64,000 nt of DNA from a bacterium (GCA_043803945.1 JAZDJN010000087.1:317126-381125), one strand, 5' to 3'. Counted from the stretch's first letter, positions 4,542-10,425 are shown. Numbers and translations: made by a program. The notes: a model not told the origin generated them from the letters alone.

Positions 4542-5513
4542 TTAATTCATAAGCTCGCTGACCCGTTTTTGTGCATTCACCTTATCGGGCCCATCGGCAA
4601 TCAAGACAAGGTAGATTTGATAGTATTGGACAGCCTCAGTGAATGAGCCGCGGAATTCGTACATTTGCGCTTTCCTAAACAGGTGCGATGCTGTCGAAGG
4701 ATCTGCTTTCAGTGCCCGTCCATAGTGTGCCACGGCGACATCGACTTTCCCTTTTGCAACATAGGCATCGCCTAGAAGCCGGTACCCTTCTGAATCATCG
4801 GGAGTGAGCATCAAACATTTTTCAAGGACAGCAATTGCATCGTCGATCCGTTTTTTTGAAAAGAGAAACTCTCCAAGGCGCCTATAGGCTTCGCCCGCTC
4901 CGGGCTTCACCTTGATTGCCTTTCTGAAGCAATCTTCTGAGAGCTTGAAGTTTCCTTTTTCTGCCATTACTTTTCCAATGGCGAGTAACCCCATATAGGA
5001 ATCAAGCCGATATATTTGTTGTGCCTGGACATGGGCCTTATCGAATCCGCCTCCTAACAACGAAGGAGCAAGAAGGTAATACTCCAGCAATGCCTCCCGA
5101 TAGGGAACTGAGTTTGCATCATACTGGACCGCTTCTTCCAGATGCTCTTTTACTTCAAGCGCAATGAAGGGTTTGCGAAGCATCCCGGCAGAAGGGAATT
5201 CAAGTTTATAAGCTTCAGCAAGCTTGTAGTGATACTCGGCGTTTTGCCGCTCCAGTGAAACGGCAAGCTCAAATTCCTTGATTGCCTCCATCGTCTTGCC
5301 CGGTTCCGCAAGCAATGCAATGCCGCTCAGATAATGTGCTTTTGCCCTGTCGTCCCCATCAGACCTCATCTCACCGGAAAGGGTCTCAGCATGAAGTTCC
5401 TGTTGGAGGGTGTACACAGGTGGTTGATTTGCTTCAACCTCTTCGTTCAACACAACCAGGGAGAGTAGGAGTATTAAAATCCCCCATGCGATTGAATACG
5501 CCTGTTTTTTCAT
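4542..5513 (-). CDS. Secreted tetratricopeptide-repeat protein
   Basis: Likely start MKKQAYSIAWGILILLLSLVVL (signal-like). Multiple TPR motifs such as AEYHYKLAEAY, EAYRRLGEFL and EGYRLLGDAY. Confidence 0.8.
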   Translation of the reverse strand: MKKQAYSIAWGILILLLSLVVLNEEVEANQPPVYTLQQELHAETLSGEMRSDGDDRAKAHYLSGIALLAEPGKTMEAIKEFELAVSLERQNAEYHYKLAEAYKLEFPSAGMLRKPFIALEVKEHLEEAVQYDANSVPYREALLEYYLLAPSLLGGGFDKAHVQAQQIYRLDSYMGLLAIGKVMAEKGNFKLSEDCFRKAIKVKPGAGEAYRRLGEFLFSKKRIDDAIAVLEKCLMLTPDDSEGYRLLGDAYVAKGKVDVAVAHYGRALKADPSTASHLFRKAQMYEFRGSFTEAVQYYQIYLVLIADGPDKVNAQKRVSELMN

Positions 5514-5579
5514 GGCATTGTTCCTTGTCTGCTGTCTTAGCAATACGACAAACTTGTACCGATGTTGCACGAAGAACGC

Positions 5580-6728
5580 TTATCCCTTTATAGCGGCAGC
5601 ACCTGCTGCGGCTTCCTTTTGGTTTTCCTCTCCAATACGATACGGTACTTTTATACACACTTCCAGCCCCTTCGCTGGGATACTGGTAAATTGGAGGGCT
5701 TCAAGGTCGCCATAGAGCTGAATCAAACGGGCCCTTGTATTGCTCAATCCGATTCCTTCTGTAATCCCGGTGCCATTTTCACTCGGCAGCCCGGGCCCAT
5801 TATCAATAACAGTAAGATGTACTTTTTCGTTCATTTTACGGGCAGCAATAGTTACCATTCCCCCGCTCCGCCGGGTATTGACGGCGTACTTAATCGCATT
5901 TTCGACAATCGGCTGAAGGATGAGATTAGGAACCTTCAAGGGGAGCAGTTCTTTTGGAATATCGATGACGACTTTAAGGCGGCGCCCGAACCGCACTTTC
6001 TCTATCTCTAGATATTGTTGAAGAAAATCAATTTCTTCCTTCAACGTCACCTCCTGCACGCCAACGGTCTTCAGGGAATAGCGCAGAAGGTCACCCAGTC
6101 TCGTCAGAACCCGATCGGCATCGTCAACATTTTTATGCATGAGCGAAGAAATTGCATTCAGGGTGTTAAAGAGAAAGTGCGGGTGAAGTTGCATTTTCAA
6201 TGCCTGAAGTTCTGCCTGGGTGAGTTGTTGTTTCAGTTTCATCGTATGCAGTTCGTGCTCACGATAGCGATGATAGTATTCAACAAGATACCCAACGGCG
6301 AGCACAATCCAGTACGTGAGCACATTCATGTGGAAATTCACAGCAAAGAGAAACTCCACCGACCGAAATTCTTCAAAGAGTTGAAGAGCATATGGCCTGA
6401 AGGACATATCCACAATCTGCGCGGCGATCAACTGGGTTACTGCGAGGATGAAGCTTACCGGTATATGAACGAGGAGTGCCCGAATGATCGATTGCCGTTC
6501 AAAGCGGAATCGTTTCGCGAGCCAGAAGATTATCGGCGTGAAGAGCGCCCAGAGGTAGTAAAATGGAAGATTGATCTGAATTGCGCGCGACCAGGAGATC
6601 GACGATTTCAAAATATCGGCATACCAGACATACGCCTGCGACGCGAAGAACAATCCCACGAGCGTCCAGATTAACCACACGAGAAGCCACCGAACCAGCC
6701 GATATTCAAAAAGCTTGTGCTTGAACAT
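5580..6728 (-). CDS. LytS/YehU-family membrane sensor histidine kinase
   Basis: N-terminal TM helices, LKMQLHPHFLFNTLN, LQPIVENAIKY, DNGPG and GIGLSN. Confidence 0.93.
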   Translation of the reverse strand: MFKHKLFEYRLVRWLLVWLIWTLVGLFFASQAYVWYADILKSSISWSRAIQINLPFYYLWALFTPIIFWLAKRFRFERQSIIRALLVHIPVSFILAVTQLIAAQIVDMSFRPYALQLFEEFRSVEFLFAVNFHMNVLTYWIVLAVGYLVEYYHRYREHELHTMKLKQQLTQAELQALKMQLHPHFLFNTLNAISSLMHKNVDDADRVLTRLGDLLRYSLKTVGVQEVTLKEEIDFLQQYLEIEKVRFGRRLKVVIDIPKELLPLKVPNLILQPIVENAIKYAVNTRRSGGMVTIAARKMNEKVHLTVIDNGPGLPSENGTGITEGIGLSNTRARLIQLYGDLEALQFTSIPAKGLEVCIKVPYRIGEENQKEAAAGAAAIKG

Positions 6729-6744
6729 ATCTTAAATAATCCAC

Positions 6745-8232
6745 CTACTTTGTACGCAATGATTGTTTCTGTTTCTCTGCTTCTTCCTTAATGATGTGCC
6801 AGACAGAGCGAACATCCTCTTCGCGAACCCGCAGATGACTGACGACAAGCCGGATAACATAGTCCCCTTTCAACTTCGTATGGGAAAGATAGGCTTTGCC
6901 GGTTTTGTTAACGGTATGCATTAGGCGTTCATTGAACGCATTCAATTCCGTTTCACTCTGAATGTCTTTTGGGTGCGCGCGAAAACAAATCGTGCTGAGC
7001 GGGACCGGTGCCATCAGTTCAAACTCCGGATCGTTTTTAATCCACGAAGCAGCTTCACGGGCAAGACGAATATGTTCTCTGAATCGCGCTGCCAATCCTT
7101 CCCACCCAAAATACCGGATGACAAACCAGAGTTTGAGTGCGCGAAACCTGCGCCCAAGCTGGAGTCCGTAATCCATCAAGTTCTCAACCTCGCTGTCTGC
7201 CTGTGTACGAAGATATTCGGGAATGAGGCTGAATGCCTGTTTCAAGACGGCCGGTTTGCGTGTATAGAACGCACTGAGGTCTACAGGCACCGCCATCCAC
7301 TTGTGCGGATTAATCACAAGCGAGTCGGCCCGGTTGCATCCATTGAGAATGTACTGCATCTCGGGTATAATGGCGGCAGTACCACCATGGGCCGCATCAA
7401 CATGAAGCCAGAGATTCTCGCTCTCGCAAATGTCGGCAATGCGCGGAACAGGATCGATGCTCGTGCATGACGTTGTACCAACTGTTGCGGTGACACAGAA
7501 CGGCCTGATGCCGCGGCGCCGGTCTTCCTGAATTGCCTCTTCCAGCGCCTCCGGGATCATCTGGAAGGAATCGTCAACCGGAATTTTTCGCACACCATCC
7601 AATCCAAAACCGAGCGTGATCGCCGCTTTATCGATAGATGAGTGCGCAAATTCAGAAGCATACATACGCAATTTTGGCAGATCTGTTCTGCCGGACATTC
7701 CCTGCTCACGGATGTGGAGGTCACCCGCCTGCTCCCGCGCAGCCACAAATGCGTGCATCGTGCTGATCGACGCCGTATCGTAGATGATGCCCCAGTACTC
7801 CTCCGGTAATCCAATCATTTGCCTGAGCCAGCTTAGTGTGACCTGCTCCAGTTCCGTCACAACGGGTCCGGTTTGCCAGATCATGCCGTTCACACTGAAT
7901 GCCGCACTATAGATATCGGCAAGAATTCCCGGGCTGCTCGCGGATGAGGTAAAGTAGGCAAAGAACCGCGGATGATTCCAGTGCGTCATACCGGGCATGA
8001 TGAGTGGATCAATGTCTGCAAGAATTTCTTCCATCCGTTGACCCTGAAGGGGCGGCGACTGCGGTAATGAATTCTTGATTTGCCCCGGCTTGACGGTGGG
8101 AAGGACTGGAAGCTCTTCGAGCCGGTCAAAATAATCCGAGACCCAGTCGATAACGTCATGGCCGCTGCTTCTAAACTCTTCCGTTGGCATATCGCCGGCA
8201 GAGGGTGGTTGTTTATGTTCGTCGTTGTTCAT
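6745..8232 (-). CDS. PLP-dependent group II aromatic L-amino-acid decarboxylase (DDC-like)
   Basis: MTHWNHPRFFAYF, LWLHVDAAHGG, PLP lysine in INPHKW, and LGRRFRALKLWFV. Confidence 0.9.
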   Translation of the reverse strand: MNNDEHKQPPSAGDMPTEEFRSSGHDVIDWVSDYFDRLEELPVLPTVKPGQIKNSLPQSPPLQGQRMEEILADIDPLIMPGMTHWNHPRFFAYFTSSASSPGILADIYSAAFSVNGMIWQTGPVVTELEQVTLSWLRQMIGLPEEYWGIIYDTASISTMHAFVAAREQAGDLHIREQGMSGRTDLPKLRMYASEFAHSSIDKAAITLGFGLDGVRKIPVDDSFQMIPEALEEAIQEDRRRGIRPFCVTATVGTTSCTSIDPVPRIADICESENLWLHVDAAHGGTAAIIPEMQYILNGCNRADSLVINPHKWMAVPVDLSAFYTRKPAVLKQAFSLIPEYLRTQADSEVENLMDYGLQLGRRFRALKLWFVIRYFGWEGLAARFREHIRLAREAASWIKNDPEFELMAPVPLSTICFRAHPKDIQSETELNAFNERLMHTVNKTGKAYLSHTKLKGDYVIRLVVSHLRVREEDVRSVWHIIKEEAEKQKQSLRTK

Positions 8233-8269
8233 CGTCGTTCACTGGTGCGCTGGCGCAGCACACTCACCC

Positions 8270-9187
8270 TTACCGGGAGGAAGGCTGCACCGGTGATGTT
8301 ACGTCAAAAACAATTCTCCACTTGTTATCCAACTCCCTCCTCCACACCCTTGCGAAGTATCCTTGCTCGATAATTGTAGAATCGGAAAGCAGTTCGCTTT
8401 GTGTGTAACTGCCGTAGGTGTACCCCAGGTCGGCAGAACTTGCTGTTTCTGCTTTTTGTATTTCCCAGGTGATCATAAGTTTTTTCGGAGAGAAATAGCG
8501 CTCGATGGTATCCCTGCCGACGAATGGTTCCAGATTTTGACGATAGAGCCGCGACTCGTCCGCAAGGTGGAGGGAGAGCGCGGTACGATATCCTTCCGTT
8601 TTCACATCTCTTAGGAACTCGCTCTCACCGGCGCCCAACGATGATTCTATGCTGCTCTGCTTATAAGAACCTGCAAGCTGCGGCGGCCGTTTTGCGCTTG
8701 CTCTCCGAACCTGCCTGTCACCGGTGAATGGCGTTCCTGTTTGAATGCCAAGATCCAGGGCAACATTCCATTGGCCATCGGATTGCTTTTTCCAAACAGT
8801 AAAATAATATCCATGCCTTGCTGGTTTTTTCTCCGCTGTGTTATCGGTAAGCGTAAATGGGCCCGTTGTATAGCCGAGAGCGCCATCCTGGGAGACATCG
8901 GCAACAATTGGCTGCCAGTCCAGTGTTACTGCAAGAGGATTTTCGGGCGGAGGCACCTTTTTCATGGCCTCTTTGTACTTTAGAGGATTCGGGCGAAACA
9001 CAATTCCTTCATCGGAGAAGAACTTCATAAACGCATCGCGCACTCCGTGGGCAACACTGTATCGGGCGAAGGATCGCTCTGCTTCGACAAGCGATTGAAA
9101 GGAAGCGTCTTCCTGCTGTGTCCAAACTAGACCTCCACAGAGGAACAGAAAAAAGAGTCCTGGCCAGATTTTTTGAGAATCCATCAT
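8270..9187 (-). CDS. Secreted tandem NTF2-like (DUF4440/SnoaL) domain protein
   Basis: Signal peptide and two homologous halves: GALGYTTGPF...GYYFTVWKKQSDGQW and ADLGYTYGSY...GYFARVWRRELDNKW. Confidence 0.8.
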   Translation of the reverse strand: MMDSQKIWPGLFFLFLCGGLVWTQQEDASFQSLVEAERSFARYSVAHGVRDAFMKFFSDEGIVFRPNPLKYKEAMKKVPPPENPLAVTLDWQPIVADVSQDGALGYTTGPFTLTDNTAEKKPARHGYYFTVWKKQSDGQWNVALDLGIQTGTPFTGDRQVRRASAKRPPQLAGSYKQSSIESSLGAGESEFLRDVKTEGYRTALSLHLADESRLYRQNLEPFVGRDTIERYFSPKKLMITWEIQKAETASSADLGYTYGSYTQSELLSDSTIIEQGYFARVWRRELDNKWRIVFDVTSPVQPSSR

Positions 9188-9307
9188 CCTTGTTTCCCTT
9201 GATCCAGAGTTGTCCTCACGGGTTTGATTGATTCTGCCTGTTCTTGAACGTCCACGGGAGTATTGTACTCAATAGTTCCAATAAAAAACATCATGTCTGT
9301 TCCGGTA

Positions 9308-9451
9308 AATAAAGAAGCCCGCGACTGACGATCTGAAGGAAGCAATACCACACGCAAGGGATATAAGGAGGGGATGTCCTTCCGAAGGAATGATATCGGG
9401 GGACGTGTACGGTATGAAGGCCTCCCGCTTAGTCAACAGCGGGCTTTCAAC
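9308..9451 (-). ncRNA. Candidate ~140-nt rod-shaped small RNA or structured leader
   Basis: TATACT -10 (9458-9463, minus) lies just upstream. Nested complementary segments AAGCCCGC/GCGGGCTT, TGAC/GTCA, ATACC/GGTAT, ACACG/CGTGT and GATAT/ATATC. The 3' end is U-rich (CUUCUUUAUUU). Confidence 0.5.
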
Positions 9452-9484
9452 GCTACCAGTATAGAAAAGAACATAATAGCTTCA

Positions 9485-9515
9485 CCCTCAGGATACAACC
9501 CTGAGGGCGTTTTTT
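9485..9515. terminator. Hairpin between lytTR and the candidate sRNA promoter
   Basis: CCCTCAGG / CCTGAGGG 8-bp stem; the T-run is on the plus strand. Confidence 0.45.
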
Positions 9516-9591
9516 CAACCGCTTAGGGATAATGTCCAATCAAACGGTGTCAGAGTGGTTATATTTGCACACCAATATTCTTCCCCTGGTG

Positions 9592-10425
9592 TTACTCGGC
9601 TTTGCCAAGCAATTCCGGCAGATTGCTGCGATATCCCCGGCTCATTGTTAATTGTGTGCCGTCTTTCAGAATAACAACGTAGTCGCCATGAAACCAGGGC
9701 TGCAATTCCTTAATCCTATCGATGTTAACGAATGTGGATCGATGAATGCGAAGGAATTTCGATTGATCGAGTTTTTTCTGAATCCCGTTCATTGTTTCAC
9801 GAACCAGGTGCGACATGCTGCCCATATGCAACCGCACATAATTTCCCGATGCCTCGATCCAATCAATATCGTCCGTTTTGATGAAAAATATTTTCCCCTC
9901 CGATTTGACTGCGAGACGGTCTATCATTTTCCCTTTCGCCTTTATCTCACCGAGAAGCGAGAGCAATTTTTCCGAGAGTGCTTGTGCCTGGCCCTTTGAT
10001 AGCTGCTGGCGGGCTTGCTCCACGGCATTGTGAAACCGGTCGCGATCAAACGGTTTGAGCAAATAGTCGACCGCATGCACCTCGAACGCACGAATTGCAT
10101 ACTGGTCGTACGCCGTCACAAAGATGACCGCTGGAAGGTGTTCCTTCTGCAGGGCATTGAGCACACCGAATCCGTCAAGCTCGGGCATCTGAATGTCGAG
10201 AAAGAGGAGGTCGGGTTTTTTCGATCGAATCATCTCAACGGCTTCCTGTCCGTTTGTACATTCTCCGATGAGTTCTATTCCCGTTTCTTTCTTCAGCAAA
10301 TTGACAATTTTCTGTCGAGCAGGCGGTTCGTCATCAACGACAAGAGCGCGTATTATCTTTTGTGGTTTCACGCAGAAGTTCTTTCGTCTGTGGTGGATGG
10401 TTGCTGCATTGTTTTGACGTCTCAT
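9592..10425 (-). CDS. LytTR-family DNA-binding response regulator
   Basis: Receiver VVDDE, FLDIQMP, FVTAYD and YLLKPF. LytTR domain IEASGNYV and FLRIHRSTFVN. The true start may be further in. Confidence 0.93.
   Translation of the reverse strand: MRRQNNAATIHHRRKNFCVKPQKIIRALVVDDEPPARQKIVNLLKKETGIELIGECTNGQEAVEMIRSKKPDLLFLDIQMPELDGFGVLNALQKEHLPAVIFVTAYDQYAIRAFEVHAVDYLLKPFDRDRFHNAVEQARQQLSKGQAQALSEKLLSLLGEIKAKGKMIDRLAVKSEGKIFFIKTDDIDWIEASGNYVRLHMGSMSHLVRETMNGIQKKLDQSKFLRIHRSTFVNIDRIKELQPWFHGDYVVILKDGTQLTMSRGYRSNLPELLGKAE

Follow-up and report, generated by a model that had tools for sequence, protein, structure and literature searches.

RoxS/RsaE, FsrA and CsfG of Firmicutes are described as small RNAs (sRNAs) that use unpaired, C-rich regions to engage G-rich ribosome-binding sites (RBSs) in an Hfq-independent manner (PMC8216469). 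RNAIII, which comprises 514 nucleotides (nt) and 14 hairpins, is likewise reported to bind RBSs through unpaired C-rich motifs, and its expression is driven by the LytTR regulator AgrA (PMC5789755). In the account given for PmaR of Agrobacterium tumefaciens, a 'spoon-like' long stem presents single-stranded apical C-rich tracts that bind targets; these tracts are not anti-Shine-Dalgarno (anti-SD) sequences, and the targets are mostly activated (PMC6234868). Here, we analyze a 64,000-nt stretch of DNA from an uncultured Ignavibacteria-like bacterium (GCA_043803945.1 JAZDJN010000087.1:317126-381125; hereafter the window, and the bacterium the host), focusing on the gap between a gene for a LytTR-domain response regulator and an operon that encodes a DUF4440 protein, a pyridoxal phosphate (PLP)-dependent decarboxylase and a histidine kinase. 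Our results support the presence in this gap of a C-rich RNA element that is discrete and structured and lies on the strand of the genes (minus strand, 9306-9451; 146 nt, written elsewhere as ~145 nt). The element is an uncatalogued structured RNA element, real and conserved, and its most probable role is that of a small regulatory RNA with anti-SD action, linked to the adjacent two-component/decarboxylase locus.

The candidate resembles RoxS/RsaE, FsrA and CsfG in that it appears to be a small, terminated and C-rich RNA, and Hfq is likewise not found in the host assembly, which is rated 100% complete. It has no sequence or Rfam relation to these sRNAs, belongs to another phylum, and carries its tracts toward the tip of a single long rod, unlike the C-rich sRNAs of Firmicutes, in which they occupy separate hairpin loops. 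With RNAIII, and with its 3' domain in particular, it shares C-rich motifs and a location beside a LytTR two-component system. RNAIII also encodes delta-haemolysin, and the agr arrangement is divergent; the element, by contrast, is a single rod of ~145 nt that lacks a conserved open reading frame (ORF), matches no Rfam family and is co-directional with the regulator gene, and no LytTR-type direct repeats of at least 7 nt lie upstream of it (9455-9600; imperfect repeats could be missed). PmaR is similar in shape and differs in that the element contains an exact CCUCCUU; no homology between the two is known. Among the papers retrieved on Ignavibacteria small RNAs, titles and abstract openings describe none of this class. 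If confirmed, the element would extend SD masking by C-rich sRNAs to the Bacteroidota-Ignavibacteria branch, where SD use is uneven, and would provide a first handle on the wiring of an abundant, uncharacterized LytTR/LytS-like system around a PLP-dependent decarboxylase. The candidate is concrete, with predicted ends, seed region and target all defined, and its scope is modest, being a prediction that covers two lineages.

A predicted rod-shaped RNA element between the regulator gene and the operon

RNAfold arranges the element, whose start is predicted near 9451, as five nested helices capped by two small apical hairpins. The closing helix, P1, comprises 8 base pairs (bp) between AAGCCCGC (9439-9446) and GCGGGCUU (9322-9315) and is followed by the U-rich tail CUUUAUUUA (9314-9306), giving the RNA a terminator-like end (9306-9322). 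Helices P2 to P5 are formed by UUGAC/GUCAG, GGGAGGC/GCUUCCU, AUACC/GGUAU and ACACGU/GCGUGU. The minimum free energy (MFE) is -45.9 kcal/mol, compared with -34.3 +/- 3.8 kcal/mol for dinucleotide shuffles (z = -3.07; none of 200 as stable), and the five-helix rod with a U-rich tail that an earlier note on this DNA had proposed for the minus strand is thereby borne out. Judged by sequence only, GCGGGCUU together with CUUUAUUUA reads as an intrinsic terminator, with a G+C-rich stem followed by a U-tract; the stem encloses 115-125 nt in both lineages in which we find the rod, which is beyond the loop limit of our terminator scan. The local 5' hairpin that the earlier note described as a competitor of the closing stem also exists (9415-9449; -14.0 kcal/mol, z = -2.2) and would compete with P1-P3.

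Directly upstream, a promoter-like site can be read at 9458-9486, consisting of GGTGAA (9486-9481), a 17-nt spacer and TATACT (9463-9458). The TATACT box had been placed about 7 nt before the element; this distance holds only from the predicted start, and the box ends 11 nt before the closing stem. A second box, TACAAT, had been assigned to the next gene and is likewise present, one base away from the position first given (9262-9267, minus strand). Read directly, it is a possible separate -10 box for the operon, with no good -35 and no listing in the promoter scan. The sites that the scan did list in the gap are TTGAAA-17-TATCCT (9518-9490) and TTCATA-17-TATCAT (9418-9390), two in all against 1.4 +/- 1.2 in shuffles. 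In the host, TTGnnn-N17-TAnnnT is overrepresented ahead of genes (473 sense versus 181 antisense), pointing to promoters of the sigma-70 type. The Bacteroidetes-type TAnnTTTG promoter was considered and set aside, as it shows no enrichment in the host genome (195 sense, 161 antisense).

Between the regulator stop codon and the element lies a perfect 8-bp G+C-rich hairpin, CCCTCAGG/CCTGAGGG (9485-9507), flanked by a T-run on the plus strand (TTTTTT, 9510-9515) that reads AAAAAA on the minus strand. This hairpin may end the regulator messenger RNA (mRNA), perhaps inefficiently given that it has no U-tract on that strand, or it may instead end a plus-strand (antisense) transcript that crosses the element. 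No plus-strand gene lies near this plus-strand terminator (9485-9515).

The pyrimidine-rich segments to which the earlier note drew attention (UCCCCC, UUCCUUC, AUCCCCUCCUU, UCCCUU and the anti-SD CCUCCUU) are all present in the RNA; its description of them as less paired does not extend to the whole of CCUCCUU, part of which is closed in the MFE fold. Unpaired probabilities outline a main C-rich tract, CAUCCCCUCCUUAUAUCCCUUG (22 nt, 9355-9376), which holds CCUCCUU (9371-9365) and faces a C-run on the 5' side, UCCCCC (9398-9403). CAUCCCC and AUAUCCCUU are open in the MFE fold, with unpaired probabilities of 0.78-1.0; unpaired C-rich motifs complementary to SD sequences are predicted both here and in the counterpart described below. 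An alternative fold with an apical hairpin UCCUU-CGG-AAGGA would free the anti-SD motif and is 3.5 kcal/mol worse. As for bacteria in general, and in view of the SD enrichment of the genome, we take CCUCCUU to be the anti-SD core; 16S rRNA was not found in the host assembly, so the host's own anti-SD sequence could not be read. GGAG occurs at -20 to -4 in 19.5% of 3434 crude starts, compared with 4.1% in a control zone, and peaks at -14 to -9. Because the host uses SD sites, an anti-SD mode of action is plausible.

A diverged counterpart in another genus

A DNA search with the 404-nt gap in 61 genomes (the host and 60 relatives) returned the gap itself and two 27-nt matches (E ~0.007), which we take as chance. 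Because BLAST-type DNA searches gave nothing, relatives were sought by synteny. The DUF4440 protein was matched in 45 of the 86 family genomes searched, the host included, and long orthologues with 37-48% identity were found in four other genera. The order regulator-DUF4440-decarboxylase is kept in seven of the first 19 loci and in many more among the further loci obtained from a metagenome scan (80) and a species-genome scan (71). The closest loci derive from metagenome-assembled genomes of Ignavibacteriaceae, Ignavibacteriales and Bacteroidota.

This approach identified, in another genus, a 153-nt element (L013/L112) that occupies the same gap in the same orientation, with metagenome variants that are 97% alike (L032; L033, which equals L034; and L035). 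The counterpart starts with UAUAGCCCGCUAUUGAC and finishes with GGCGGGCUAUAUUUUUU, and its ends, its size and the topology of P1-P5 plus apical hairpin match those of the element. Its 3' end likewise reads as an intrinsic terminator, GGCGGGCUAUAU followed by UUUUUU, on the gene strand only. After the apical hairpin, ACUCCUCCUUCUC, which holds CCUCCUU, is unpaired at 0.88-1.0, and CUUCCCCC occupies the place equivalent to the 5'-side C-run. Folded as the exact element, the counterpart does better on the gene strand (z = -2.26) than on the opposite one (z = -1.39); folded with its flanks, it gives only -0.49. A promoter-like site, (C/T)(T/C)G(A/G)AC followed after 16-17 nt by TACAGT, ends 10 nt before the closing stem. 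An apparent promoter module common to both gaps (CTATACTGG / TATRCTGG.ATAGCG) was dropped as chance-level; by our own estimate, about one 9-mer match is expected by chance between gaps of 400 and 670 nt.

Several comparisons argue that the two RNAs are related. Their 5' ends are identical at 14 of 15 positions, in a stretch, AGCCCGCU(G/A)UUGAC, that includes the 5' strand of P1. Global alignment yields a score of 1, compared with -34.6 +/- 5.8 for shuffles (z = 6.2; 0/500), and alignment of the interior alone yields z = 3.45, again with none of 500 shuffles reaching it. For the pair counts, a MAFFT alignment made blind to structure (A4) was read against the MFE structure of the counterpart itself. 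The element row pairs at 26 of 40 cells, of which 14 are unchanged, five carry one-sided changes and seven carry two-sided changes; slid controls gave 13-24 paired cells with 0-3 two-sided changes, and shuffles gave 1.5 +/- 1.1 two-sided changes, with none of 500 reaching seven. On the strength of these comparisons, we take the element and its counterpart as diverged homologues. The collection of homologues envisaged in the earlier note has thus produced a syntenic, diverged counterpart in which the rod is retained, CCUCCUU is exposed and compensatory changes occur. Within the fetched loci, a loose descriptor (CCTCCT within a 7-bp closing stem whose strands are 90-190 nt apart, then a T-rich tail), written post hoc, matched only the element, the records of the counterpart and a single further place; in 11.08 Mb of host genome it matched 19 places. 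Pairs of CCTCCTG no more than 120 nt apart occur at 13 places in the host genome, none of them sRNA-like when inspected. A covariance model that combined both lineages would recover both by construction.

Some sequences around the counterpart are worth recording. In L112 (2093-2425), the 11-mer TCCTCCTTCTC occurs again ~20 nt past the U-tail and is followed by C/U-rich DNA, a hairpin with flanking A- and T-runs (2329-2346), and CTATACTGG before the DUF4440 gene; this stretch is poorly conserved and non-coding. L032 differs from the three other variants by an insertion of 135 nt (~830-965), which falls after the promoter-like CTATACTGG and before the DUF4440 start. Hairpins of the form CCCGCC..GCGTTCGGGCGGG that are 91-95% identical to the counterpart apical hairpin occur in a sister genome (G108; L187:1501-1522 and L188:13-35), where they may be a common terminator or resemble repetitive extragenic palindromic (REP) elements.

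Constraint on the rod and its distribution

Four distinct sequences of the counterpart lineage allow the constraint on the rod to be compared with that on its surroundings. The rod varies at three of 153 columns (2.0%), the 200 nt upstream at 37 of 201 columns (18.4%), and the downstream DNA at ~66 of 336, excluding the L032 insertion. One of the three changes in the rod turns a G-C pair into G-U, another removes a C from an unpaired C-run, and the third affects a loop-adjacent pair. The constrained block coincides with the rod boundaries, showing local purifying selection in that lineage. This constraint is the strongest sign that function resides in the rod itself and extends to its unpaired tracts.

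Searches of the window against Rfam yielded no match at gathering score, RNAIII, RsaE/RoxS and 6S RNA included; the earlier note had counted a match to a known family against its reading. Relaxing the search to E up to 10 (9150-9620) brought up DUF3800-X (plus strand, 14.6 bits against a gathering score of 38.2) and a long non-coding RNA fragment, both of which we regard as chance. In addition to the lack of an Rfam match, the architecture is not that of 6S RNA, as the stem beyond the open region has only 5-7 bp. The element is present in one full copy in the 5.5-Mb host genome, the seven other matches being at most 29 nt at E of at least 0.8, and the counterpart is single-copy in its own genome; a dispersed repeat, which the earlier note had raised as a concern, is thereby discounted. 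The pattern AGCCCGCTNTTG N{100,130} GCGGGCT was found in two of 401 class genomes, in the host and at one place that is not C-rich, in a sample that does not include the counterpart's genome; the reversed control pattern also gave two matches. Protein-coding readings were rejected, since neither a 55-amino-acid (aa) ORF on the minus strand nor a 50-aa ORF on the plus strand is conserved. The counterpart shows no coding signal, with variable sites distributed 20/16/14 by frame and one variant frameshifted.

Loci of a sister genus carry a conserved RNA-like block of their own in the regulator-DUF4440 gap (alignment A6; L018:1245-1460, L019:1253-1466, L023:808-1004 on the minus strand, L057, L058, L065, L069 and L073). 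It consists of a near-invariant TTGATTGATTTTCA..TTCAATTTCGTTAATTCTCAC, ~90 nt, and then a canonical terminator, GGGCCC.CGAG....CTCG.GGGCCUUGUUGCUUUU, ~30 nt before the ATG. The terminator U-tract together with GUGUC is predicted to pair with the SD sequence AAAAGGACA, giving the block the look of an attenuating leader; A6 contains zero two-sided pair changes.

Candidate target and proposed mechanism

The main C-rich tract CAUCCCCUCCUUAUAUCCCUUG is complementary to the start region of the adjacent DUF4440 gene, CAAGGGA AAC AAGGA U GAUG (9182-9201, minus strand). The 16 bp fall into segments of 7, 5 and 4 and cover the SD-like AAGGGA/AAGGA and both AUGs. The predicted duplex energy is -19.3 kcal/mol. 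Of 4537 crude start regions, only 0.7% do as well or better, and 30 of 2000 and 24 of 2000 shuffles (1.5% and 1.2%) reach this value.

We tentatively favor the interpretation that the element is an autonomous gene on the minus strand for a terminated regulatory RNA that pairs with RBSs. Its transcript would start near 9451, from the weak TATACT promoter or by read-through out of the regulator gene, which is possible because the hairpin at 9485-9507 lacks a U-tract on the minus strand. The G+C-rich base of the rod, P1, and the U-rich tail would end it. The apical third, which cannot self-pair because both of its sides are C-rich, would present CCCCC and CAUCCCCUCCUUAUAUCCCUU, and these tracts would pair with purine-rich RBSs and thereby block translation initiation. 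The best single candidate target in the host would be the adjacent DUF4440-decarboxylase-kinase operon, and the RNA would then form part of the circuit through which the flanking LytTR two-component system regulates. The earlier note had suggested an RNAIII-like effector sRNA. The C-rich rod and the CCUCCUU exposed in the counterpart agree with this suggestion; the tie to LytTR is one of adjacency. Action of the LytTR protein on the promoter of the candidate RNA is likewise suggested by adjacency alone and is not supported further, and the analogy to RNAIII should be read in the same way.

Several observations weigh against this interpretation. A search for RNA sequencing runs covering 8900-10100 returned none. 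Concerning the motif, an internal AAGGA base-pairs with the UCCUU portion of CCUCCUU when the element adopts its MFE fold, and the unpaired probability of this portion is 0.10-0.35. Concerning the target, the complementarity is not conserved: the counterpart scores only -12.3 kcal/mol on its own DUF4440 start (top 11%) and does better on the start of the regulator itself (-16.5 kcal/mol, top 2%). There is also no general preference for start regions, the mean energy being -7.43 compared with -7.15 for coding-internal sites, and shuffled tracts giving -7.8 to -8.7. The -35 of the TATACT site is weak, and the sigma-70 scan did not list this site. BLASTN with the element against the fetched loci returned nothing at E < 0.01, and a covariance model from the other lineage (R1) missed the element in the 64-kb window, with filters off included; its best matches there were ordinary terminators (E of at least 0.21). 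Applied to the element itself, R1 aligned P1 and the tail only, at 4.8 bits, and did not recover the interior. The descriptor and the helix correspondences were picked after the sequences had been viewed, and the covariation, seen between only two independent lineages, too few for a formal test, has little statistical power. A third lineage (L014, L036) retains only the first ~50 nt, without the closing strand, and at least 10 sister-genus loci hold a different RNA-like block in the regulator-DUF4440 gap; because of this truncation and replacement, the element must be considered dispensable or fast-evolving. Finally, a canonical plus-strand terminator lies 34 nt past the element, and the plus strand of the element folds at -47.6 kcal/mol (z = -2.80; 1/200 shuffles). 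Folding of both strands, which the earlier note had proposed as a check, thus upholds the minus strand without setting it apart: because the plus strand is about equally stable, folding energy alone cannot fix the strand in the host.

Alternative explanations

The readings of this locus can overlap. We rank the autonomous terminated RNA first, as a tentative preference, a cis-acting leader second, as somewhat unlikely, and the 3' end of the regulator mRNA third, as less likely again. As a leader or attenuator of the DUF4440-decarboxylase-kinase operon, the rod would be transcribed from TATACT, P1 and the U-tail would stop most transcripts, and in those that read through, the C-rich tract would fold onto the RBS 160-190 nt downstream until a signal arrives. 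The element indeed ends 118 nt before the DUF4440 ATG with no convincing promoter in between (TACAAT lacks a -35), and, like known attenuator leaders, it places a G+C-rich stem with a U-tail ahead of an operon and, in the host, includes a 5' hairpin that would compete. When 9451-9165 is folded as a whole, the rod gives way in the MFE structure to the 5' hairpin and to pairing between the tract and the start region, whose 16-bp, top-0.7% complementarity serves this reading as well; this long fold, however, is no more stable than shuffles (z = +0.12; 113/200 as stable). The sister-genus terminator, which leaves no room for a promoter because it lies only ~30 nt before the ATG, indicates that leader-type control of the operon exists in the family. 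In the counterpart, by contrast, ~330 nt separate the rod and the gene, taken up by ~20% variable DNA and a second terminator-like hairpin; one variant carries the 135-nt insertion in between, and the rod alone is the conserved unit. Neither the start-region complementarity nor the competing 5' hairpin is conserved (counterpart hairpin, -6.7 kcal/mol, z = +0.5), which speaks against the two-state attenuator that the earlier note had offered as its other option. Moreover, the stem of the element encloses 115 nt of structured RNA, unlike that of attenuator leaders, and the element has no evident ligand, leader peptide or binding protein. Alternatively, the rod could be an elaborate intrinsic terminator or 3' untranslated region (UTR) of the LytTR regulator mRNA, with no role of its own or yielding an sRNA by processing. 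In both lineages the rod is the first proper U-tailed hairpin past the regulator gene: the host hairpin at 9507-9485 has its T-run on the other strand, and the counterpart hairpin just past the stop codon is weak (6 bp, three G-C pairs). The weakness of the TATACT promoter fits as well. A terminator, however, needs only stem and tail, yet no more than three of 153 columns vary in the rod of the counterpart lineage, unpaired C-rich tracts included, against 18.4% in the preceding 200 nt, and a -10-like hexamer is conserved 10-11 nt before P1 in both lineages.

Two further explanations appear much less probable. That the rod is a non-functional relic, for instance a hairpin that arose by chance or the decayed remains of a mobile element with inverted repeats, is very unlikely in our estimation: inverted ends of 8-12 bp, TA-flanked in the counterpart, a patchy distribution and the truncated copy in a sister lineage would fit such an origin, whereas the strong local constraint and the kept pairing argue for function, the rod is single-copy in the host and counterpart genomes, and the end-motif pattern occurs in just two of 401 class genomes (the host and an unrelated-looking place), as often as its reversed control. 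Least probable of all is a purine-rich RNA read from the plus strand (9306-9451) that carries AAGGA/AAGGAGG, ends at 9485-9515 and acts as a protein sponge or antisense RNA. The plus strand folds well (z = -2.80), the gap's only canonical terminator reads that way, and several AAGGA motifs recall CsrA sites. A sponge of the CsrB/RsmZ type was nonetheless judged unlikely, as its partner CsrA (PF02599) is not found in the assembly rated 100% complete; the same search was positive in three of 14 named control genomes (Escherichia coli, Bacillus subtilis and Thermotoga maritima). Moreover, the U-tail of the counterpart lies on the gene strand, no plus-strand terminator accompanies it and the opposite strand folds worse (z = -1.39), and the G-U pairs read from the folded helices, four here and five in the counterpart, would become A-C mismatches. 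The plus-strand ORF (9374-9526) lacks conservation, and a single nucleotide separates its SD sequence from the ATG.

At its broadest, the comparison invites the speculation, which we hold as doubtful, that the regulator-DUF4440 gap is a conserved slot for regulatory RNAs across Ignavibacteria, filled by successive unrelated RNAs, and that the host rod is the effector arm of the two-component system in a feedback loop. The slot would hold the anti-SD rod in two genera and, in a third, a terminator leader that engages the SD sequence through its U-tract. The LytTR system would act through the anti-SD RNA on translation, in an RNAIII-like manner of independent origin outside Firmicutes, and the RNA would be a terminated sRNA and, on read-through, a cis-acting anti-SD sequence for the kinase-containing operon.

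Neighboring genes and other features

Upstream of the element, the response regulator (9592-10425, minus strand; 277 aa) combines a receiver and a LytTR domain (Pfam Response_reg, 1.4e-27; LytTR, 1.2e-27). It is BtsR/LytR-like, scoring 191 bits with the NCBIfam BtsR model and 172 bits with LytR, both under cut-off. The downstream operon (4542-9187, minus strand) comprises four genes separated by 37, 16 and 9 nt. These encode, in order, the 305-aa protein with a double DUF4440 (9187-8270), the PLP-dependent decarboxylase (8232-6745), a LytS-type histidine kinase with His_kinase and HATPase_c sensor domains (6728-5580) and a TPR protein (5570-4542). On the opposite strand, the 50-aa ORF at 9374-9526 begins 1 nt after an AAGGAGG that mirrors the anti-SD tract; its reading frame continues across the plus-strand terminator.

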